Below are positions 12,417-29,583 of a stretch of 64,000 bases of DNA, piece by piece. Origin of the DNA: Chloroflexota bacterium (GTDB lineage Bacteria > Chloroflexota > UBA11872); assembly GCA_026708035.1 (NCBI GenBank), contig JAPOVQ010000006.1:123554-187553 (forward strand), written 5' to 3'. The notes under the pieces were generated by a model. That model had not been told where the DNA came from, searched no databases, and was given only the letters and a program-made list of their open reading frames with translations. Position 1 is the first letter of the stretch, and the number at the start of each line of letters is the position of its first letter. Both the position numbers and the translations under genes were made by a program.

Positions 12417-12799
12417 AGCGGGTCGGTCACAGTTCCGCTTGTCGTTGCTCGCGCTTTACCACCAATCGACGCGCCCGAACCGGCCACCGTGTCACTCCGA
12501 GCGCAGCAAGGTGTCTAAGGGGCGGCGAGAAATCCCAACGTCCTTAGATTCCTCACTGCGTTCGGAATGTCGAACTCGGCGCCAGGGCGTATGTCACCGC
12601 ATCGGCAGCCCAGCACGACAGGCGGCCCTCTTTCGCCGGATTCGTCACACTGGCGTGCCTGGGACGAGGCTATGCTCGAAGCGTGGCTTTCACGCCGGTG
12701 AACGGCTCCATGCACTTTGCCGACATTTCTAGCGGCTGGCGGTCCCGGATACGTCTGCGAGGCGGACGAGGCCGGGCGCAGCCTGGCCGCGCGGCCTGG

Positions 12800-14506
12800 A
12801 TGGCAGCGCTGATGGTCGGAATCGCAGTCATGCTGCTGGCTGTAGCGGCCTGCGGTGAGGACGAGCCGCCGCCGGAGCCGGCCACGCCGACCGTCGCGGC
12901 CGCGGCGCCTTCGCCCGCGCCGCAGCCGCCCACGCCCACCGCACCCGTGACAGCGGCACTCACCGCCGCGCCAACGGCCACTCCCACCCCGACGATCACG
13001 CCCACGGAGACTCCAACCCCAACGCCGACTCCAAGCCCAAGCCCCACGGCCACGCCTTCGCCGACTCCCACGCCGGAGCCGACTGCCGAGGCTCTCGACG
13101 CGTCCGACTTCGACCGAGATCGGCTGCACGAGGCCGTCGCGAACAACACGCCGGAGACGGTTCGCATGACGACCCAGGCTCGCCTGATTCCCATGGTCGA
13201 GGGCGAGATCGCGGTGACGCTCGAGCTCGTGCTCGCCGACGAGGCCATCCGAATGCTGATGGTGCTTGGGGCGGATGACCAGCAACTGAGCCTCGAGCTG
13301 ATCGTGATCGGCGACACCCAGTACTTCCGCACCGTGGATCCGGACGGAACCGAGAGCCCGTGGCTGGCGTCGTCGATCAACCCCGGTGAACCGGCGCTTA
13401 TCGACGCGCTGGGCGCCGGTGACCTGCTGGACGACATGATTCCCGACGACGACCAGGCGCCCATCGAAGCGGTCGGCGTGGAGGCCTGCGGCGACGGCCG
13501 GCAGTGCTTTGTGCTCACAAGTCCCGAGGAAGCCTGGGTGCAGCTGCTGGTGGATGCCGAGACCTATCTGCCCGTCGCATTTCGCGGCCCCGCGCTCGGC
13601 GAGGGCTTCGGAACGGACGTTGAGATGCGCTTGGAATGGAACGCCGATATCTCGATCAGCGCGCCGGAAGACTCGCAGCGCGTGTCCCCCGACGAATTCG
13701 GCCTCGCCCTGATCGGATTCTTCTTTGGCTCGGCGGGCATTACGCAGGGACCGACCCTGCCGCCCAGTACCGGGGGACAGCCCGGAACCGCCGTTGAAAT
13801 CGTGGCCCCCGACGAGCGCGCCGCCTTGTGGCTGGAGCTCGGCGCGTCGCCCTATGGAGAGGCGCTCGACGAGACCGGCGATCTGTTCCACGGCGACCCC
13901 GGCGTCTCGCCGGTGCGCTACGACCCCACGGTGGACATCTGGAACTGGGGCGCAGGGAGCATTGAGCTGGCGGAGGCCACGGCGGATGAGCTGTTCGGGC
14001 CGGACGGCGCATTCCCCTGCGGCTCGCTGGATCCGGTGGTCGCCTGCGGCGCGGATGGCGTAGGTCCCGGGACCTACCTGCTGATCTGGAGCGAAATGCT
14101 AGACCCGGTCCCGCTGGATGACGCCGCCTACGTTCGCACCTTCTGGGCCCTGTTCCAGGACGGCGACCCGGCAAACGATTGGGAGGCGCTGCCGCAGTTC
14201 GCCAACGACGTGCTGGACGGCAGCGACTCGCACTACTGGATTGCGGCAATACCGGACGGCTGGGAGTTGCGCCGCACCTTCGGCCCACAGTTGGAGCCGC
14301 GGCCGACCGATGGCGCGGCCATGATCCTGGCGAACGTCGTGGTCTTCTGGGTGCCGGTGTCGGAGCTTGGCGATCTGGACGCCCTCAGCCTGGGCGTGGC
14401 CAGTTTCAGCGGCCCCGTGGAAGACCCCTACGGCGTGAACGGAACCCTCGACCGGTCACCCGAGCCGCAGCAGCCGCTGACGCCGCTCGACGAGGTGGGG
14501 TTCTAG
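12800..14506 (+). CDS. secreted lipoprotein with Pro/Thr-rich linker, unknown function (paralog 1 of 3)
   Basis: Signal peptide with lipobox (LAVAAC at the signal-peptide end), then a PT-rich linker of about 90 aa. Two conserved domains follow, each with a Cys pair (ACGDGRQC; [11 protein letters not shown]). Start uncertain; ORF is open from GTG 12683. Confidence 0.6.
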   Translation: MAALMVGIAVMLLAVAACGEDEPPPEPATPTVAAAAPSPAPQPPTPTAPVTAALTAAPTATPTPTITPTETPTPTPTPSPSPTATPSPTPTPEPTAEALDASDFDRDRLHEAVANNTPETVRMTTQARLIPMVEGEIAVTLELVLADEAIRMLMVLGADDQQLSLELIVIGDTQYFRTVDPDGTESPWLASSINPGEPALIDALGAGDLLDDMIPDDDQAPIEAVGVEACGDGRQCFVLTSPEEAWVQLLVDAETYLPVAFRGPALGEGFGTDVEMRLEWNADISISAPEDSQRVSPDEFGLALIGFFFGSAGITQGPTLPPSTGGQPGTAVEIVAPDERAALWLELGASPYGEALDETGDLFHGDPGVSPVRYDPTVDIWNWGAGSIELAEATADELFGPDGAFPCGSLDPVVACGADGVGPGTYLLIWSEMLDPVPLDDAAYVRTFWALFQDGDPANDWEALPQFANDVLDGSDSHYWIAAIPDGWELRRTFGPQLEPRPTDGAAMILANVVVFWVPVSELGDLDALSLGVASFSGPVEDPYGVNGTLDRSPEPQQPLTPLDEVGF

Positions 14507-14525
14507 GGAGCGCACTTCCCGCAAC
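13921..14525 (+). repeat. roughly 600-bp near-identical direct repeat (copy 1), inside lipoprotein paralog 1 3' end
   Basis: Reads almost base-for-base like 15981-16585, including the first bases after the stop (TAGGGAGCGCA.TTCCCGC). Confidence 0.75.
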
Positions 14526-14684
14526 CGGTCCCACGCTGCACGCAGCGCGAGCTGCCGCGGGCGAGATTCGTCGCGGTGTTGCTGATTTGACCGTGTGACT
14601 ATGCTTAGGATCTGCCGTTCGCCCTGGGTAATGAGACGCTGCACGGCGCAGGCAATCTCGACTCAATGCCAGGGATGCGGTCGC

Positions 14685-16574
14685 ATGGATAAGTCGATGC
14701 CGCAATCTCGTGTCGCGGCGTGGGCGGGAATGCTGGCGATAGGGACGCTCCTGACGCTGGCCGTCGTTGGGTGCGGCGAGGACGAGCCTCCGCCGGAGCC
14801 GGCCACTCCGACCCCGACCGTCGAGGCTGCGGCGCCTTCGCCAACGCCCCAGACGCCCGCAGCCGTGACGGCAGCGCCAACCGCCACGGCCTCTCCTACG
14901 CCGACGGCCGCGCCAACGGCGACGCCGAGCCCAAGCCCAACCGCCACGGCCACTCCCACCCCGACGATCGCGCCAACGGCGACGCCGACGCCCACGCCGA
15001 CCCCGAGCCCGAGTCCCACGGCCACGCCTTCGCCAACTCCGACGCCCGAGCCGACTGCCGCGGCCCTCGACGCGTCCGACTTCGATCGCAGCCGACTGCA
15101 CCAAGCCATTGCGAGCAATCCGCTCGAGTCGCTGCGACTCTCCACCGAGGCCGGCCTGCTGCCGATGGTCGAGGGCGACATCGCGGTGACACTCGAGGTC
15201 GTGCCGGGGGACGATGCGGCGCGAATGCTGATGTCATTCGGTGCGGACGACCAAGAAGTGAGCCTCGAGCTGATCGTGATCGGCGACACGCAGTACCTGC
15301 GCGGAGTAGATCTGACGGGCATCGAGAGCCCGTGGGTAGCGACCAGGATCACTGCGAGCGCGCCGGCGCTGGTCGACGCCATCGGATCAGGCGACCTTGT
15401 TGACGACATAATCCCCGGCGACGACCAGGCGCCCATCGTGGCAGTCGGCGTGGAGGCCTGCGGCGACGGCCGGCAGTGCTTCGTGCTCACCAGTCCTGAG
15501 GACACCTCGGTGCGGCTGCTGGTCGATACCGAGACCTATTTGCCCGTGATGTCTCGCCGCCCGGCCGTCGGCGAGGATCTCGACACGGACGTCGAGTCGC
15601 TGATCGAGTGGAACGCCGAGGTTTCGATCAGCGCGCCGGCTGACGCGCGGCTTGTCTCCCACGATGAGTTCGCCCTCACCTATGCCAGCTTCTTCTTTAG
15701 CATGATGGGCCTCGCACAAGGGTCGCCCCCGCCGACCGCCACCATCGTCGGCCAAGAGACCATCAGAGAAGTGCCGGCGGAGACTGTCGTCACCAAGGAA
15801 ATCGTCAAGGAAGTGCCAGTCGAGACAATCGTCACTCGGGAGGTAGTCAGAGAATTACCGGTCGAGGCAGTCGTCGACACCCAGCGATCGGCGTTGTGGC
15901 TGGCGTTGGGTGCATCGCTCTATGGAGAGGCTCTCGACGACAGGGGAGATCTTTTCCACGGCGACCCAGGCATTTCGCCGGTGCGCTTCGACCCCACGGT
16001 GGACATCTGGAACTGGGGCGCGGGACGGATTGAGCTGGCCGAGGCCACGGCGCGCGAGCTGTTCGGGCCGGACGGCGAATTCCCCTGCGGCTCGCTGGAT
16101 CCGGTGGTCGCCTGCGGCGCGGATGGCGTCGCCCCGGGGGACTACCTGCTGATCTGGAGCGAGATGCTCGAACCGGTGCCGCTCGACGACGCCGCTTTCA
16201 TTCGCACCTTCTGGGCCCTGTTCCAGGACGGCGATCCGGCGAACGACTGGGAGGCGCTGCCACAGTTCGCCAATGATGTGCTGGACGGTAGCGACACGCA
16301 CTACTGGATTGCGGCAATTCCGGGCGGCTGGGAGCTACGCCGCACCTTCGGCCCGCAGCTGCAGCCCATGCCGACCGATGGCGCGGCCATGATCCTGACG
16401 AACGTCGTGGTCTTCTGGGTGCCGGTGTCGGAGCTTGGCGATCTGGACGCCTTGAGCCTGGGCGTGGCCAGCTTCAGCGGTCCCGTCGAAGATCCATCTG
16501 GCGTGGACGGAACCCTCGACCGGTCACCCGAGCCACAGCAGCCGCTGACGCCGCTGGACGAGGTGGGGTTCTAG
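14685..16574 (+). CDS. secreted lipoprotein with Pro/Thr-rich linker, unknown function (paralog 2 of 3)
   Basis: Lipobox VVGC, longer PT linker, same two Cys-pair domains. C-terminal about 200 aa nearly identical to paralog 1. Start uncertain; ORF open from 14595. Confidence 0.6.
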
Positions 16575-16585
16575 GGAGCGCATTC
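15981..16585 (+). repeat. roughly 600-bp near-identical direct repeat (copy 2), inside lipoprotein paralog 2 3' end
   Basis: See copy 1. Differences are scattered single bases. Confidence 0.75.
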
Positions 16586-16703
16586 CCGCCGCCGTTCCCA
16601 CATGGCACGCGGGTCGCGGCGTGGCGTTCGAGACTCGCCAGGCTGGGGCTGCTCGGGCAGCGGCTATGCTCACGCCGTGCAATTGGCGTCGTAGTTCGGC
16701 TTC

Positions 16704-18455
16704 ATGCGCTACACGAAGAGACTCCGCCCAATGATTGATACGTTGGTGCCAGGGAAGGCGCCGGGCATCCGCCGCACGGTCAGCGTCGTCACCCTGGCCC
16801 TTGGAACCGTGGTCATGCTCGCCGTTGCGGCCTGCGGCGAGGACGCCCCTCCACCCGAGGCGGCCACGCCGGCGCCCACGGCGGAGGCGGCGCTTTCCCC
16901 GACACCGCAGCCGGACACGACCACGCCAACTCCCACCGCAACCCCAACGGCAACACCCCAACCGACCGCCACTCCGGCGTCAACGCCGCAGCCCTCGCCG
17001 GCGGCGCCCGCCGATGCCTCGCTCGGCCGCGCCCAAGCCGTGGGCTTCGATGCCAGCCGGTTCGAGGACGCCCTCCAGAACGTCGCCGGAAACGCCACCC
17101 GGGTATCGATTGATATGGGCCCGCCGCTCTTCAAACCAGGGGAGCTCACGCTGATGGTCGAGACCGGGCCGGCGGGCGACACGATGCGCACGCTGATTAC
17201 CAGCGCGTCTTCAGGCCGCCCGCTGAGCATCGAGATGCTTCGAGTTGAAACCACGGCATTTGCCCGTGGCCAAGACGCCGACGGCAACTGGACTCCGTGG
17301 GTGGGGTCGATCGTCGCCGACGACCTCGGCTTGCCTTCCGCCGCCATGGGGACGGCGATTGAAGATCTCGAGGCCCTCGGCGTCTCGGGCGACGATCCCG
17401 GCTACAGCGTCATCGGCACGGTCGGGTGCCCGGACGGCGGAACGTGCTTTCTCCTCCAACTCCCCGACTTTGGAGAAGGGCAATTCGCGGAGCTGCTGGT
17501 TGACACGGAGACATATCTGCCGGTGGTGATGCGCCTGCGACCCGAGGGATTCCCCGGCTTCTACGACATGCTCATCGACTGGAACGCCGACGTCGCCATC
17601 ACGGCGCCGCAGGATGCGCAGTTGCTCACTCCGGAGGAGTTCGCAACGGCGGTCTCGAGGCTGATCGCCGTACAGACGGGCGCCAACGTAGATGCCAACC
17701 TGCCCGACCCGGCAACCGCGAGCGGCCAGGAGGGGGCCCTCCGGGAGTTGGTTCGGCTGCTTCCCGAGCTCGGCGCGTTGCCGGGCACCGAGGCGCGCGA
17801 CGGCAGCGGCGACTTGTTCCACCCCGATCTAGACAGCGCGAACGTGCGCAGCGATTCCACGATTGATATCGACACCTGGGGCGCCGGAGTGGTCGACCTG
17901 AGCGACTCAGGGGCGCGCGAGCTGTTCGGACCGGACGGGACGCTGTCCTGCGGCCCGGCGAATCCCGGTGTGGTCTGCGGCGCCACCGAAGTCGCTCCCG
18001 GACAGTATCTCGTGGTCTGGATGGCGCTCGTCGACGAGCTTCGCCCGGACGACGACAGTCACTTCCACACCTTCTGGGCCGTGTTCGACGACGGCGACCC
18101 GGCAAACGACCCTCCGCAGCTGCCTATGATCTCCCGCGATGTGCTGGAGAGCGCCGACCAGAACTATCGGATCGAGGAAACGCGTAGCGGCTGGCGGCTT
18201 GTTCGCACCTTCGGGCCGGAGTTTGAACGCACGCCGACCGGCGGCGCGGCGATCCTCGCCGAGGCCGTCGTGCTCTTTTGGTTGCCCGTGTCGGAGCTCG
18301 GCGATCCGGAGGCGCTGAGTCTGGGCGTGGCCAGCTCGAGCGGCTCACGCTTGAATCCGTTCGGCCCGGATGGGGCCTTCGACCGGTCGCCGGACCCCGG
18401 GCAGCCGCTGACGCCGCTCGAGGAAGTCCTGCCGCCAGCTCCCGTGAAGCGCTAA
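16704..18455 (+). CDS. secreted lipoprotein with Pro/Thr-rich linker, unknown function (paralog 3 of 3, more diverged)
   Basis: Lipobox VAAC, PT linker, same domain order with conserved motifs (ETYLPV, DLFHPD, DTWGAG, Cys pairs GCPDGGTC and SCGPANPGVVC). Confidence 0.6.
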   Translation: MRYTKRLRPMIDTLVPGKAPGIRRTVSVVTLALGTVVMLAVAACGEDAPPPEAATPAPTAEAALSPTPQPDTTTPTPTATPTATPQPTATPASTPQPSPAAPADASLGRAQAVGFDASRFEDALQNVAGNATRVSIDMGPPLFKPGELTLMVETGPAGDTMRTLITSASSGRPLSIEMLRVETTAFARGQDADGNWTPWVGSIVADDLGLPSAAMGTAIEDLEALGVSGDDPGYSVIGTVGCPDGGTCFLLQLPDFGEGQFAELLVDTETYLPVVMRLRPEGFPGFYDMLIDWNADVAITAPQDAQLLTPEEFATAVSRLIAVQTGANVDANLPDPATASGQEGALRELVRLLPELGALPGTEARDGSGDLFHPDLDSANVRSDSTIDIDTWGAGVVDLSDSGARELFGPDGTLSCGPANPGVVCGATEVAPGQYLVVWMALVDELRPDDDSHFHTFWAVFDDGDPANDPPQLPMISRDVLESADQNYRIEETRSGWRLVRTFGPEFERTPTGGAAILAEAVVLFWLPVSELGDPEALSLGVASSSGSRLNPFGPDGAFDRSPDPGQPLTPLEEVLPPAPVKR

Positions 18456-20080
18456 CCCTGATCGGCGCCGTAAAGCGTCGTGGCGGGGTGGAAGGACGAC
18501 CAGCCGAGCCAGTAGGCCAGGTGGCCCGGTAGGCGGGCGAGCTGAGCGCCGTCGGGGCGCACCAGCGCCTCTTCGGTGACCTGCCAAACCGTTCCTTGCT
18601 CGTCGACGACCGTGCGCGGTTCGCTGCCCGGCGCGAATTCCCGCTCGGCGCGCTCGAATGCGCGCACCGCCGCCCCGGCGCTCCAGGAGACATTGCCCCG
18701 CCGCCGGTCGATGCCGTCGATCGTCAGTTCCTCCCCGAGCGCGACGAGCACCACCGGCTGGTCGGCGACGGTGTCGTTGAGCACCCGGGCCTGGACCACG
18801 TCGGCCACCGCATAGGCGCGGGCGGAGTCCCCCAGCACGAGCGCGAATACGCGGTCCTTGGGGGCCAGGCCATCCGCCGTCGGCGCCGGGAACATCAGGT
18901 CGGGGCCGGCGAAGTAGCCGCCGTAGGCCGCGCCGGGCGAATAGTCGCGCCGGTGGCCCGTGTTGATGCTGAGAACCGCGGTCGTGGGGTTGGCCGTGCG
19001 CCAGGCGTCCCAGGTGGTCGTGACGATGGGGATGACATCCAGCCGGCCCGGATCGGCCGCCAGCGGCCCAAGCACGGGCTCACCGGTCAACTGATTCCAG
19101 AGCGTGAACGTGCCGCGGTCGTACATCAGCTTGTTGCTGCGCATCAGGAAACCCGACGTGCCGATGCTGAGCACGTCGCCGCGGTAGCGCCGGCTGAACA
19201 GCACGCCCGCGCCGCAGAGGGTGCAGTAGGCCAGCGCCACGGGCTCGCCGCCCACAACGTCGTTGGCCATCTCGTGCCAGTCCAGGATACGGAGCGGATA
19301 GGCGCGATAGTCGCCGTTGATCGCGACGCCGAAGACCACGTCGTCGGGTTCCAGGTAGGCCGCACTCTCGGCCGCGACCATCGGGGCCGACTCCAGCGGT
19401 GGGATGCCGTCCAGGCGCACGCCGCCCCAGACGATCTCCTCGAAGCGGATGCTGCGGGGCGCGCGCTCGTCGAAGAATCGGGCGAACTGGGGATCGATGC
19501 GGCTGTAGATGCGGCCTTTCCAGGCGCCGAATCCCGGCACGGCGGTCAGGTCGGTCCTGGCGTACCACTCGGCCCACTCCGCCCACGATTCGTGTTGTTC
19601 GCCGGTGAGTTGGAACAGACCCTGCCGAGCGTTGTCCCACGCGTCGGGATGAAACGCCCCAAGCTGCGCCGCCCGCAGGACCTCGATGAGCACCGAAATC
19701 AGCCGCTCGTCGCCGGTCGTGCCCATGTATGCGACCAGCTCCACCTGCGCCTCCGGATAGGTCGGGTCGAGCAGCAGGCCGTCAAGCAGCGATTGCGCCT
19801 GCTCGTCCGATAGCCGGCGGTCGTCCGGCACCGGGGTGCCGGCAAGCGCCGGCCGCGGCGTGGCCTCGGCGGTCGGTGTGGGCGTGGGCGCGGCGGTTGG
19901 CGTCGGCGCGGGTGTGGCCGTGGGGCTGGGTGTTGGCGATGGAGGCGCGGTGACGATCACTCTGGCGGCAGCGGCGGGCCTGGTCGGCGAGGCTGTCGAC
20001 GGGGTGTCGTCGCAAGCCGCCAGCGCGGCCGCCGCGCCCGCGGTCGCCAGCAGCCCAAGCGCACGGCGGCGCGACACCAC
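18452..20080 (-). CDS. DUF3179 family lipoprotein (Tat-type signal, PT-rich linker)
   Basis: Translation contains the DUF3179-like core (ILDWHEMANDVVGGEPVALAYCTLCG). SRRRALGLL...LAAC reads as a Tat signal plus lipobox. Start placed at GTG 20080/20077, downstream of an intergenic-type repeat that sits inside the longer ORF (ATG 20191). Confidence 0.6.
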   Translation of the reverse strand: MVSRRRALGLLATAGAAAALAACDDTPSTASPTRPAAAARVIVTAPPSPTPSPTATPAPTPTAAPTPTPTAEATPRPALAGTPVPDDRRLSDEQAQSLLDGLLLDPTYPEAQVELVAYMGTTGDERLISVLIEVLRAAQLGAFHPDAWDNARQGLFQLTGEQHESWAEWAEWYARTDLTAVPGFGAWKGRIYSRIDPQFARFFDERAPRSIRFEEIVWGGVRLDGIPPLESAPMVAAESAAYLEPDDVVFGVAINGDYRAYPLRILDWHEMANDVVGGEPVALAYCTLCGAGVLFSRRYRGDVLSIGTSGFLMRSNKLMYDRGTFTLWNQLTGEPVLGPLAADPGRLDVIPIVTTTWDAWRTANPTTAVLSINTGHRRDYSPGAAYGGYFAGPDLMFPAPTADGLAPKDRVFALVLGDSARAYAVADVVQARVLNDTVADQPVVLVALGEELTIDGIDRRRGNVSWSAGAAVRAFERAEREFAPGSEPRTVVDEQGTVWQVTEEALVRPDGAQLARLPGHLAYWLGWSSFHPATTLYGADQG

Positions 20081-20119
20081 CGCGCGTCGCGGGGCGGCTT
20101 GCTGTCTCCGCGCGCGCCC

Positions 20120-20164
20120 GGCTCCCTCTCCCCTGGAGAGAGAGGGCTGGGGTGAGGGGGATCC
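20120..20164. repeat. palindromic repeat family B (GGTCCCCTCTCCC-n4-GGGAGAGGG-TAGGGTGAGGGG) copy
   Basis: GGCTCCCTCTCCCCTGGAGAGAGAGGGCTGGGGTGAGGGGGATCC. Lies inside the longest ORF of the DUF3179 gene. Confidence 0.65.
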
Positions 20165-20500
20165 GAGACTCGGGCGTGGAAGATCGGCCATTTATGCAAG
20201 GGTCTCTTTCAAGGGGGACGGGACCGTACTTCGGCGGCGGTGGCGGGGTGTCTCACCCTGACCACAATGACCGGCTCCATCTTGAGCAGCCATGCGCGCC
20301 CTTGAGCTATCATCGCCGCTACTGTCAGTGGCCCCATTGTCAGGCCGCCGTATTTCACATGCGCTATTGACGTCCATTGCCAAGACTCCGGTGGGGGGCC
20401 TTCATCAAGCCATACGTATTCGGCCGCGATGCCGTTTGGCCTACCGTGGCAAAGCCACCGTTCGGGCACATGATGCCGACCATCTTGCCGAGCGGCTGAC

Positions 20501-25900: not shown

Positions 25901-26081
25901 CAAGCCCGACGCGGCGCTGCACAATCCACCCAAGGGCCCAATGCGTACTGATTCAAGGAGACGGAGCGCCCACTGAAGCCCGCCCGACACGGTGGGCCGC
26001 TACAGACGCCATTGGCCACTTGGGGCGCGCGCAACCGCCCAGCGTCGGACGCGCGCCACCGCCGGGCAGCGGAGATTGAGC

Positions 26082-27278
26082 ATGACGGATCGAATGCGTT
26101 GGCTAGGTCTGGCGGGGGCCCTCGCCGCCATCGTGGCGATCATCGCCGTCATCCTTGTCGTGGTGCAGCCGCCGCAGGCCGTCAGCGTGGTTCCCGGACC
26201 GGACGAACCGACCGCGCCCGAGACCGCGCCCACGGTGGCGCAGGCCGTACCGGCAACGCCGCAAGTCGCAGCCCCGGCGTCGTGGGCGGCGCCGGCCACA
26301 TCGCAGGCGACGGCGCCGCCCACGCCCCAGGCAGCGGCAACGCCCGAGCCTTCGGGGCCGCTGGCGCCCGAGTTCGTGCGCGTCACCCAGTGGCTAAACA
26401 GCCCGGCGCTGAGCCTGGCCGAGCTGCGCGGCCGGGTGGTGCTGATCGATGTGTGGACCTTTGGCTGCTACAACTGCCGCAACACCCTGCCCTACCTCCG
26501 CGACTGGCACGCGAAGTACGCCTCCGAGGGCTTGCAGATCGTCGGGGTGCACACGCCCGAGTTTGAGTTCGAGCAGGTCGAGGCCAACGTGCGCGAGGCC
26601 ATGATCCGGCTGAACGTGACCTGGCCGGTAGCCATGGACAACAACTGGGGCACCTGGCGCGCCTACCAGAATCGCTATTGGCCGCGTAAATACCTGGTGG
26701 ATCAGCAGGGCCGAATCCGGTTCGACGTGATCGGTGAAGGGTCCTACGCGGAGATGGAACGCCGCATTCGCGAGCTGCTCACCGAGGGCGGGGCCTCGCT
26801 CGACCACATCCCCGTGGGCGGCGTGGACGAAGGCGCCGCGCCTGCGCAGACGGCGCTGTTCACGGGTGACTCGTGGGACGAAGGTCGGTTCCTGGCCGTC
26901 GAGGGCACGGGAGAAGCGGCCAGACTCGGGCTGCGCGGTGGCTGGACCGTGGAGTCCGACCGCGTGCAGCCGGACCCGGACGTGGGATCGACCGCTTGGG
27001 ACGCGACCGTCGTCGTGACATCGGGCATGGCGAACCTTTCCGCGGCGGCGACCTCGGAAGTGCCGGTGCTCGTGAAGGTGACGCTGGACGGGATGCCTGT
27101 TCCGGAACCGCTGCGCGGTGCTCACGTCTTCGCGGGGTACGACGGCGCGACGTTTGTCGAGATAGGTGCCTTCGGCACCTATGGACTGCTGCGCAACGGC
27201 GACGCCGGACCGCGTGAGCTGCGGCTGCACACCTCCGACGCCGGCCTGTCGCTCTATACCTTCGTTTTCGGTGCGTAG
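26082..27278 (+). CDS. membrane-anchored thioredoxin-like thiol:disulfide oxidoreductase (TlpA/ResA-like)
   Basis: N-terminal TM helix, Pro/Ala-rich linker, then a thioredoxin fold with CYNC active site (WTFGCYNC). Extra C-terminal domain of about 170 aa. ATG 26082 preceded by GGAG. Confidence 0.75.
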   Translation: MTDRMRWLGLAGALAAIVAIIAVILVVVQPPQAVSVVPGPDEPTAPETAPTVAQAVPATPQVAAPASWAAPATSQATAPPTPQAAATPEPSGPLAPEFVRVTQWLNSPALSLAELRGRVVLIDVWTFGCYNCRNTLPYLRDWHAKYASEGLQIVGVHTPEFEFEQVEANVREAMIRLNVTWPVAMDNNWGTWRAYQNRYWPRKYLVDQQGRIRFDVIGEGSYAEMERRIRELLTEGGASLDHIPVGGVDEGAAPAQTALFTGDSWDEGRFLAVEGTGEAARLGLRGGWTVESDRVQPDPDVGSTAWDATVVVTSGMANLSAAATSEVPVLVKVTLDGMPVPEPLRGAHVFAGYDGATFVEIGAFGTYGLLRNGDAGPRELRLHTSDAGLSLYTFVFGA

Positions 27279-27289
27279 CGCCTCCCGCC

Positions 27290-28006
27290 GTGGACCAATC
27301 GGTCAACCTGGCGGTGGCGTTCGGAGCGGGGGTGGCCTCGTTCATCGCGCCGTGCACGCTCGCGCTGGTGCCGGCCTACGTGCTCTATCTCGGCGGCCTC
27401 ACCTTGAGCGACGGAGACGCGGCGGGCGCCCGCGCGACCCGCGGCGCGACGCTGCGAAGCGTCTTGGCCTTCACGGTTGGTTTCACGTCGGTATTCGTGA
27501 TTCTCGGGGCTTCGCTCGGAGCGCTCACGCAGACCCTGGCCGACCATTCGGTGTGGCTGAACCGGGTGGGCGGCACGCTGATCATCCTGCTGGGGCTGAT
27601 GGCCCTGGGGCTGCTGCGGGTTCCGCTGGCGCAGCGCGGCTTTGCGTTCCGCCCGCAGGTGTCCTCCCAGCTGCACGTGGCGGGCGCATTCCTGGTCGGC
27701 GGCACGTTCGCGGTCAGCTGGGTTCCCTGCGTGGGACCCATCCTCGGAGCGATCCTGGTGCTGGCGGCCACCACGGCATCCGTGGGCGAAGGTGCGCTGC
27801 TGCTGCTGGCCTACTCGCTGGGCATGATGCTGCCGTTCGCGGCCGCCGGGGCATTCTCCGGGTGGACGCGCGCGCTGCTCCAGCGCCACGGCCAGGCGCT
27901 CGGCTACGCGACCCACGCGGGGGGCATCCTGCTCATCGCGCTGGGGATCGTGGTTTTCACCAATCTCATGCCCGTTATCGCGAGATATATCCCAATTGGC
28001 GTATGA
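27290..28006 (+). CDS. ccdA: cytochrome c-type biogenesis / disulfide-reductant transfer protein CcdA
   Basis: Six-TM DsbD-core protein with a Cys in TM1 (FIAPCTLALVP) and a second conserved Cys (VPCVGP). GTG start. Confidence 0.8.
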   Translation: MDQSVNLAVAFGAGVASFIAPCTLALVPAYVLYLGGLTLSDGDAAGARATRGATLRSVLAFTVGFTSVFVILGASLGALTQTLADHSVWLNRVGGTLIILLGLMALGLLRVPLAQRGFAFRPQVSSQLHVAGAFLVGGTFAVSWVPCVGPILGAILVLAATTASVGEGALLLLAYSLGMMLPFAAAGAFSGWTRALLQRHGQALGYATHAGGILLIALGIVVFTNLMPVIARYIPIGV

Positions 28007-28110: not shown

Positions 28111-29583
28111 ATGAACAGCACGCCGGACAGCCAGGCCGCGGCGCGGCTCGCCGCCGCCGTTGGGCAGATCCTTCCCGTGGATGGCGAGCGCTCGCTGATG
28201 GCGGTTGCCGCCAAGTACGACCTCGAAGTCGCGCCCGCCGATGACGGGGAGACATTCGCCGGCCAATTGATCGTCGCGGCCGGCGAGGCCGACCGCCTCG
28301 ATGACGTGGTGCGGGACCTGGTCACCGAGAGCGTCCTGTACCGACGGGAAGCGCGTGAGCCGGTCGACTCCGTCGAATACGGCGAGCTGTCGGCGGCGGC
28401 GCAGGCACTTGGAGTTGCGGCGCCGCTATTGGAGGAGATCGACGGCGCAACCGCGGATGTCGACGGCGCCGAGCGGCGCACCCGGCTCTTGGGCGCCATG
28501 TTTGCGCTCTACTCCGACATGATGAGCGGTCCGGAAGAGGATCGGCCCCTGAAGCTGGCGAATGTCCTCGGCGGGCTGCTGCGGGCCAACGAAATCGACA
28601 TCTTGCGTCTGCCCCAAGCCCGCGCCGACGATGTGCGCGGCGTCGTGCGCATGGGCGGCATCGAGCACCTCCTCACGGCCGTGTGGGAAGCCGGTGACGA
28701 CCCGCTGACGGTCGACACGTCGGAAGAATCCATCCAGGCGCAGGATCGGCGCACGCTGATCGTGGCGCTCCAAGGGTTCCCGCGCGAAATGCGGCTGCAT
28801 CCGGAACGTGACCGCCGCAAGATCCTGCTCGACGGCCGCGATCTGACCCTGCTGCTGGAAGGCCGTTGGACCGTGCCGCACGCCGTGCGCTGGAAGGCCC
28901 GCGAGCAGCGCGAAACGGGAGTGTTTGCGCGCCTGCCAATGGCCCCGCCCGAAAACGATCCGACGGCGCTGGCGCTGTCGTCGGACACCGCCGAGATCGT
29001 CGAGGTTGAGGCCGACCAGAAGACGCTGGCGGCCAACGTCGCCGAATTCGACCAGACGATCTCGGAGGAGATCGAGGCGTCGGAAGCGGAAGCCAAGCGC
29101 CTCCGCGTCGTCGGATTCATTCTGGCCGGAATCGCCGCGGTCGTGATCGCGGGTCTGTTCATCAATTCCAAGGTCCAAGAGTCGATCGCGGCCGGGAACC
29201 TCGACGCCGCCAGCGTCACGGCCATGCGCGCCGCCCAGGCGCAAGAAGATGCCCTGGAACGGCTTGAGATCACCGGCCTGAACCGGTACTTCTCTGACGA
29301 CGTCATTGCCAGCATTCGGCAGCAAATCGAAAGTTTGCGCGCGAACAACGTTTACATCACCGCCCGCATCGACCGCGAGGTCTTGCGCGAAAACTCAGGC
29401 GTACAAGACGAGTTGGCGTTCATCGCCTTTCGCGAGACGGGGGAAACCGAGCTGCGCGGCCAGGGCGACGGGCGCATTATCAGCAGTGATCCGGCGTACC
29501 GCGCCGTTCTGGGCTTCATCATGTCTCGGAGCGAGGCCGGCCAATGGATGGTCACGGACCGGCGCGTGTTCGACAGCAGCTAA
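28111..29583 (+). CDS. hypothetical protein with one predicted TM helix (function unknown)
   Basis: 490-aa ORF with coding-like GC3. Single hydrophobic segment near residue 350. No motif recognised. Confidence 0.55.
   Translation: MNSTPDSQAAARLAAAVGQILPVDGERSLMAVAAKYDLEVAPADDGETFAGQLIVAAGEADRLDDVVRDLVTESVLYRREAREPVDSVEYGELSAAAQALGVAAPLLEEIDGATADVDGAERRTRLLGAMFALYSDMMSGPEEDRPLKLANVLGGLLRANEIDILRLPQARADDVRGVVRMGGIEHLLTAVWEAGDDPLTVDTSEESIQAQDRRTLIVALQGFPREMRLHPERDRRKILLDGRDLTLLLEGRWTVPHAVRWKAREQRETGVFARLPMAPPENDPTALALSSDTAEIVEVEADQKTLAANVAEFDQTISEEIEASEAEAKRLRVVGFILAGIAAVVIAGLFINSKVQESIAAGNLDAASVTAMRAAQAQEDALERLEITGLNRYFSDDVIASIRQQIESLRANNVYITARIDREVLRENSGVQDELAFIAFRETGETELRGQGDGRIISSDPAYRAVLGFIMSRSEAGQWMVTDRRVFDSS

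Follow-up and report, generated by a model that had tools for sequence, protein, structure and literature searches.

The genome of a Chloroflexota bacterium (assembly GCA_026708035.1) carries three consecutive plus-strand genes for 'hypothetical proteins' that meet a convergent gene for a DUF3179 lipoprotein, and the question raised by this locus is what the three proteins are built from and whether all four genes belong together. We analysed a stretch of 64,000 nt around it (contig JAPOVQ010000006.1, positions 123,554 to 187,553, hereafter the window) and refer to the three paralogs, in plus-strand order, as P1, P2 and P3. A sequence-only reading of this DNA had described them as stalked lipoproteins and had proposed an envelope module of all four genes. 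We find that P1–P3 form a new sequence family in which two well-known extracytoplasmic folds are combined in a new way, a predicted LprG-like domain (N-domain) being followed by a predicted DOMON/CBM9-like domain (C-domain). The DUF3179 gene is best regarded as a neighbour through synteny rather than as a proven part of the system.

Three tandem paralogs share a lipoprotein architecture

P1, P2 and P3 can be aligned from end to end, and the open reading frames (ORFs), lipoboxes, stalks and two Cys pairs that had been reported for all three tandem genes were recovered. A lipobox was called when an uncharged h-region was followed by [LIVMFWSTAG]2-[LIVMFYSTAGCQ]-[AGS]-C near the N-terminus (PROSITE PS51257-type) and the n-region was positively charged; by this test P1, P2, P3 and the DUF3179 protein are all predicted to be lipidated. 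The lipoboxes of the paralogs are LAVAAC (P1), LAVVGC (P2) and LAVAAC (P3), each continued by G-E-D-(E/A)-P-P-P, and the Pro/Thr-rich (PT) stalks are 84, 101 and 69 residues long, respectively, with Pro, Thr and Ala together accounting for 71–79% of residues. Within the window, a lipobox is combined with a PT stalk in four ORFs only, i.e. P1, P2, P3 and the DUF3179 gene. Beyond the lipobox, each mature paralog has exactly four Cys, which form two local pairs, CxDGxxC and Cx8C. Shared motifs had been claimed for all three proteins; this is right for ETYLPV, which is invariant, and only partly so for the 16-residue and the longer C-terminal motif, which are exact in P1 and P2 and have diverged in P3.

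Among the 52 database entries of the family (see below), a lipobox was found in 27, all of which have the junction ACGED(E/A)PPP, and went undetected in 25, those inspected being truncated or having late-called starts. Automated lipoprotein prediction would miss relatives with such starts. The public gene call of P1 (558 aa) begins at a Met inside the signal peptide (MLLAVAAC; window 12683-12853). In the window the P1 frame opens with GTG 12683, and its start is uncertain between ATG 12710, which gives an Arg-rich n-region, and ATG 12800.

The N-domain is modelled as an LprG-like half-barrel

AlphaFold2, run on the family alignment, returned two domains with a disordered linker between them, at a predicted local distance difference test score (pLDDT) of 72.9 and a predicted template modelling score (pTM) of 0.51. 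In Foldseek searches the N-domain matched Mycobacterium tuberculosis LprG with a probability of 1.0 and a template modelling score of up to 0.59. VioE, RseB and EPDR1 were further matches, and the best structural matches were LprG, LprF and LppX rather than RseB. As modelled, the N-domain is thus a member of the LolA-like fold superfamily, with an open antiparallel beta half-barrel and a helical plug or lid. The sequence-only reading had suggested looking for a LolA/LppX-like fold, and for the middle domain this search was successful. Bacteria use LolA-type half-barrels, which accommodate acyl chains in a hydrophobic cavity, to shield these chains or other hydrophobic ligands.

At the sequence level, Pfam and NCBIfam searches with the whole paralogs gave only low-complexity matches in the PT linker (GltJ, TonB, pol III tau), and profile searches of the PDB with the family alignment and with broad N-domain and C-domain alignments gave no match, in agreement with the earlier statement that neither domain falls into a Pfam family. 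That reading had also allowed for the domains turning out to belong to a well-characterised family, which is borne out for the folds, both of known superfamilies, and not for the sequences, for which no characterised family was found. One protein among the collected N-domain relatives, P0093, did match the Pfam family LppX_LprAFG, of which it is a true member; it had been recruited mainly via its PT linker, and hhalign connects it weakly with the N-domain profile (probability 6%, E 0.006), so that we rejected it.

The C-domain is modelled as a DOMON-type beta-sandwich without heme ligands

The C-domain modelled alone was predicted confidently (pLDDT 88.7, pTM 0.88), and its structural matches are the DOMON-like beta-sandwich group, for which the comparison set comprised CBM9 of T. 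maritima Xyn10A (1i82), ethylbenzene dehydrogenase gamma/NxrC (EB_dh), the matched region of glucodextranase (1ulv) and 4jpq. On this model the C-domain is a DOMON-type beta-sandwich. Iyer, Anantharaman and Aravind reportedly united heme- and sugar-binding domains in one DOMON superfamily in 2007.

In 57 distant relatives of the C-domain, conservation is seen at the Cys pair, at a D-x-D-G-D-x-x-N cluster, at two further Asp, at a Trp and at P-x-S-E, and no column of His, Met or Lys reaches even 36%; His29 of DLFHGD is restricted to the close clade. The absence of conserved His, Met and Lys speaks against heme ligation by Met/Lys or Met/His as in EB_dh and CDH-type domains, and a heme-binding DOMON of this type was rejected. 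The conservation pattern is more in keeping with a CBM9-like binding module that would be stabilised by Ca2+. CBM9 binds the reducing end of its sugar with a clamp of two Trp and with polar residues; conserved Trp residues are present in the C-domain. Like other members of the DOMON-like superfamily, the C-domain is a predicted extracytoplasmic module fused to varied partners. It differs from them in the failure of even a broad profile to find a sequence match in Pfam or the PDB, in lacking conserved Met/Lys or Met/His heme ligands, with sugar binding only putative, and in a signature of its own (a Cx8-10C pair, VFDSDGDxANN, GTDRWY and PxSE).

The paralogs belong to two old subfamilies

P1 and P2 are 76–77% identical, and P3 is 42–45% identical to either. 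When the copies in the window and in 10 related loci were compared in an identity matrix, two old subfamilies emerged: type A, present in every genome of the matrix with 65–95% identity among copies, and type B (P3 and the copies of loci L003 and L009), with 86–91% identity among copies and ∼42% to type A. Copy number is one in seven genomes, two in three and three in the window. The earlier description as fresh paralogs did not survive these values, with identities of 76% and 42% and a P3 type that is old and 86–91% conserved in two other species. Judged by these identities, P2 is an extra, lineage-specific type A copy, and locus L002 carries an independent type A duplication. A collapsed or duplicated contig was also considered and is ruled out by the nucleotide difference between P1 and P2 (20% of positions) together with two-copy loci in independent assemblies, some of them on multi-megabase contigs.

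The two domains of P1 and P2 have not diverged equally, since the C-domains are 90–95% identical and the LprG-like domains 55–72% at similar synonymous divergence. At the sequence level this contrast is explained either by faster protein evolution of the N-domain or by stronger constraint on the C-domain. Because the C-domain is nearly constant and the LprG-like domains have diverged, the comparison suggests that the paralogs may be specialised, presenting different hydrophobic cargoes to the same glycan or partner. The inter-domain linker of P2 contains a 46-aa insert with a repeat-like motif (15750-15887), which is absent in P1 and P3.

The two-domain fusion is rare and its domains are independent modules

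A word-indexed search of 5.8 billion proteins recovered 52 relatives only, none with a Pfam domain, and the few named ones are from Chloroflexi metagenome-assembled genomes (MAGs). Scanning 185,579 GTDB species genomes gave 9 loci, all in Chloroflexota MAGs, and in an exhaustive HMMER profile search, 25 of 1.84 billion representatives matched below 1e-30 and 95 below 1e-10. When the listed HMMER matches were re-scored with separate hidden Markov models of the N-domain and the C-domain, ∼34 proteins had the N-domain only, mostly 250–350-aa lipoproteins with PT linkers of their own, and ∼79 had the C-domain only; the fusion of both was seen only in ∼50 close relatives. The two domains are independent modules, because N-only and C-only proteins exist, most of which are also predicted lipoproteins with PT linkers. 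C-domain relatives are also fused to the extracellular modules GEVED, TSP_3, SdrD_B and CHRD.

Protein P0039 (L017:7001-8509) has two tandem LprG-like domains and no DOMON/CBM9-like domain, and its locus is unrelated and has no DUF3179 gene. This protein also explains an apparent similarity of N- and C-domain within the family (33 bits), an artefact that arose when MAFFT placed the second N-domain of P0039 under C-domain columns and that was gone once P0039 was removed. N-only lipoprotein genes adjoin hisG at three loci (L012:6001-6945, L014:5001-5852 and L015:1872-2927). Those of L012 and L014 also adjoin a futalosine-pathway cluster (MqnA/D-like and radical SAM proteins) on the opposite strand, and L015 is too short to show one.

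Both the distribution and the copy-number changes bear on one possible role, that of a host- or environment-facing adhesin or ligand scavenger in a probably sponge-associated symbiont, whose stalk would present variable modules to host glycans or lipids and whose copy number would change with host adaptation. Restriction of the family to one clade of Chloroflexota MAGs, one to three copies with independent duplications, the fast divergence of the N-domain and the adhesion-type fusion partners of C-domain relatives would all fit such a role, and the isolate names COS3_bin_17 and RHO3_bin_74 look like sponge sample codes, an unconfirmed inference from names only. However, a sponge origin of these MAGs was not confirmed from the paper text, a membrane lipid anchor with a stalk of 70–100 residues may not reach past the envelope, no secretion or host-interaction genes lie nearby, and the genes sit in a conserved block of housekeeping genes rather than on an island. 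We consider this role unlikely.

A tethered binder of amphipathic glycoconjugates as tentative function

By analogy with LprG, we tentatively suppose, at a chance somewhat short of even, that P1–P3 are tethered binders handling amphipathic glycoconjugates that are handed between the membrane and outer envelope layers. The acylated Cys would anchor each lipoprotein in the cytoplasmic membrane, and the Pro/Thr/Ala-rich stalk of 70–100 residues would hold it off the membrane and could span the wall, carrying two disulfide-stapled binding modules with a flexible linker between them. The LprG/LppX/LolA-type half-barrel would hold the hydrophobic part of the ligand, as in LprG, and the DOMON/CBM9-type sandwich, with a conserved acidic cluster that probably binds Ca2+ and without heme ligands, would most likely bind a glycan or dock to a wall polymer. 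Candidate cargoes are a glycolipid, a lipoglycan or a lipid-linked wall polymer. The direction of transfer would follow the example of LprG, which binds and transfers triacylated glycolipids and triacylglycerides and helps to move them outward (PMC6519032, PMC10576003), and any cooperation of the two domains is putative.

The paralogs resemble mycobacterial LprG, LprF and LppX in being lipobox-anchored extracytoplasmic proteins, and their N-domain relatives are mostly, like LprG itself, small stand-alone lipoproteins. In contrast to LprG, LprF and LppX, the paralogs give no significant match to the Pfam LppX_LprAFG model, they add a conserved CxDGxxC disulfide hairpin, a long PT stalk and the C-terminal DOMON/CBM9-like domain, they have no adjacent major facilitator superfamily (MFS) or MmpL transporter, and their host belongs to the Chloroflexota and is not a mycolate actinobacterium.

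Several observations weigh against a function as glycoconjugate binder. The relative orientation of the domains is undefined at the pTM of the two-domain model, and the N-domain model is only moderately confident, with the pLDDT per 10-residue block mostly 64–89 and four blocks at 46–52. The LppX_LprAFG model (PF07161) was matched neither by the three paralogs at E ≤ 1 nor by 25 N-domain relatives at E ≤ 10, and 24 diverse C-domains matched neither CBM9 (PF06452/PF16011) nor any other Pfam family at E ≤ 10. Moreover, no transporter or lipid-biosynthesis gene lies beside the paralogs (in the window and among the called genes of L001 and L002) or beside the stand-alone N-domain genes, whereas LprG is operonic with an MFS pump, and lipid export systems of the LprG type are paired genetically with an Rv1410-like MFS transporter or with MmpL. 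Fold similarity does not fix function, and LolA-like proteins include an enzyme (VioE) and a sensor (RseB).

This latitude of the fold would also accommodate a cell-wall-associated regulator or scaffold, in which the C-module binds the cell's own wall glycan and the LolA-like domain is a protein–protein adaptor, not a lipid carrier. RseB senses envelope lipid signals. GerS of Clostridioides difficile, as an allosteric activator of the amidase CwlD, demonstrates that monoderm LolA-like lipoproteins can work in this way (bioRxiv 10.1101/2025.01.13.632879), and peptidoglycan fragments have been proposed as the signal of a CBM9-like sensor domain (bioRxiv 10.1101/2023.05.05.539549). The missing transporter in the window, L001 and L002 would be expected under such a role, and the constant C-domain fits a common wall-docking function. 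GerS and RseB are, like the paralogs, envelope lipoproteins or periplasmic proteins with a LolA-like fold, but both are structurally farther from the N-domain than LprG, and their partners (the CwlD amidase and RseA) have no counterpart at this locus. Genes for a hydrolase, an amidase or signalling are missing from the vicinity of the paralogs, both in the window and in all 10 syntenic loci, and in structure the N-domain best matches proteins that bind lipids (LprG, LprF and LppX), not RseB. A regulator or scaffold is improbable in our judgement, and we keep the tethered glycoconjugate binder as the tentative function. A more specific form of it, which we regard as speculative and doubtful, is a Chloroflexota-specific counterpart of the LprG system, where the half-barrel and a Ca2+-dependent glycan-binding module would act together on a lipoglycan or glycolipid, recognising it and carrying it through the wall. 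The C-module would then represent a new, uncurated branch of DOMON/CBM9 domains widespread in metagenomes.

The DUF3179 gene is a syntenic neighbour

The gene convergent to P3 encodes, as had been read from the sequence, a DUF3179 lipoprotein with an RRR-type signal motif, a lipobox and a PT stretch. The Pfam match (PF11376) has an E-value of 2.6e-72 and 244 bits against a cut-off of 27, and covers model positions 2–292 of 292. The TAA of P3 and the minus-strand TAG overlap as CTAA (18452-18455), which is the 4-nt overlap noted before; it is not conserved, as a gap of ∼15 nt separates the genes in the two loci with called genes (L001 and L002). The motif SRRRALG is present, and the twin-arginine translocation (Tat) model TIGR01409 reaches 13.9 bits (E 0.055), short of its cut-off of 16.7. 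Residues ∼116–255, between the PT stretch and the domain, form a probably helical region of ∼140 residues without Pfam match, and this N-terminal region is kept in all syntenic orthologs (phmmer E 1e-69 to 1e-94).

The DUF3179 gene is convergent to the last paralog in all 10 fetched loci, which share a proA-proB / EF-G / M42 / X / DUF3179 / methyltransferase / Lhr block with the paralogs at X, and likewise on the short contig L019, which contains two copies and the DUF3179 gene only. Outside this block, DUF3179 was absent from the surroundings of the tandem N-domain gene P0039 (L017), of C-only genes (L011, L013, L018) and of N-only genes (L012, L014–L016). Nor does a transporter gene recur consistently beside these relatives. 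Because only genomes with the entire block show the adjacency, it is not distinguishable from inherited synteny, and because the genes are convergent, the DUF3179 gene is not co-transcribed with the paralogs. The proposed four-gene envelope module is not supported by this adjacency of a convergent gene, confined as it is to one syntenic block.

The selenoprotein families with a UxxC/T motif include DUF3179 (PMC9312934). The protein in the window carries CTLC and may itself be a thiol-redox or metal protein. At 25992-28006 a TlpA/AhpC-like thioredoxin (Thioredoxin_10 domain) is followed by a CcdA/DsbD_TM protein, a pair that is syntenic in L001; this extracytoplasmic thiol-redox pair is 6–8 kb from the DUF3179 gene. 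One could imagine a single extracytoplasmic system of P1–P3 and the DUF3179 protein, possibly redox-linked, given the CxxC motif, the Tat-like signal and the heme that DOMON/EB_dh domains can carry. Such a system would draw on the constant position of DUF3179 immediately downstream, on its CTLC motif and the family's selenoproteins, on the TlpA-like and CcdA-like genes, and on the pairing of all Cys of the paralogs, which implies a need for oxidative folding. Against this, convergent orientation excludes co-transcription, the overlap varies, the adjacency stays within one fully syntenic lineage, and none of the 9 other loci with N-only, N–N or C-only relatives has DUF3179 beside them. DUF3179 also has its own Pfam model and selenoprotein members elsewhere, while the fusion family is tiny, the C-domain has no conserved heme ligands, and the Tat model stays below its cut-off. 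We regard a joint system as very unlikely.

Organization of the locus

The coordinates of the four genes and their parts are collected in Table 1. The genes lie in a housekeeping neighbourhood that is a conserved block, not an island: proA, proB, an EF-G paralog and an M42 peptidase are found upstream, the last two as the sequence-only reading had it, and a methyltransferase, Lhr, the TlpA-like thioredoxin and CcdA downstream. G+C content is ∼69% across the window, without a compositional break at the locus. Rfam gave no match in the locus region, and counts of terminators and promoters in and around the genes were at or below shuffled expectation.

Table 1. Positions (nt of the window) of the four lipoprotein genes, their predicted domains and motifs
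Feature	Position	Strand	Remarks
P1, type A lipoprotein	12710/12800-14506	+	ORF 12683-14506; identical to database protein P0001 (OXG33_02340, Chloroflexi MAG)
P1 lipobox Cys codon	12851	+	
P1 PT stalk	12854-13105	+	
P1 LprG/LolA-like domain (predicted)	13085-13720	+	Cys pair 13487 and 13505 (CGDGRQC); ETYLPV motif
P1 DOMON/CBM9-like beta-sandwich (predicted)	13805-14503	+	Cys pair 14018 and 14045; QDGDPAND acidic cluster
P2, type A', lineage-specific duplicate	14697-16574	+	ORF 14595-16574; alternative ATG 14685; matches P0017 (OXG33_02345)
P2 lipobox Cys	14772	+	
P2 LprG-like domain (predicted)	15057-15692	+	
P2 DOMON/CBM9-like domain (predicted)	15873-16571	+	
P3, type B, old paralog	16704-18455	+	ORF 16704-18455; likely start ATG 16704
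P3 lipobox Cys	16833	+	
P3 LprG-like domain (predicted)	17016-17663	+	
P3 DOMON/CBM9-like domain (predicted)	17736-18431	+	
DUF3179 lipoprotein, convergent	18452-20191	-	ORF 18452-20191; neighbour only; PT stretch
DUF3179 domain	18479-19411	-	
DUF3179 protein, CTLC	19214-19225	-	residues 323-326
DUF3179 protein, lipobox LAAC	20012-20023	-	
DUF3179 protein, SRRRALG	20054-20074	-	

Between the M42 and lipoprotein genes, a PIN/DUF6364 toxin–antitoxin pair is present in L001 (8822-9453) and L002 (6303-6934) and absent from the window, which indicates that this intergenic spot accepts insertions. Farther downstream, the window has a 490-aa ORF without Pfam match (28111-29583), and in L001 a 491-aa gene without recorded Pfam match begins at the same position.

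Implications

What has been gained is better annotation at the domain level rather than a new kind of system. Three 'hypothetical proteins' now have an architecture that can be tested, with a predicted lipid anchor, a PT stalk, an LprG-like domain and a DOMON/CBM9-like domain. Two sequence families absent from Pfam have emerged, both of which are also found singly in many proteins from metagenomes, and a tempting but unsupported link to DUF3179 has been removed. The envelope biology of uncultured Chloroflexota is poorly known, and a glycolipid handler of the LprG kind would offer a good way into it. If the paralogs were indeed a counterpart of the LprG system, they would point to an unrecognised lipoglycan layer in these bacteria, which are, by isolate name, putatively sponge-associated.

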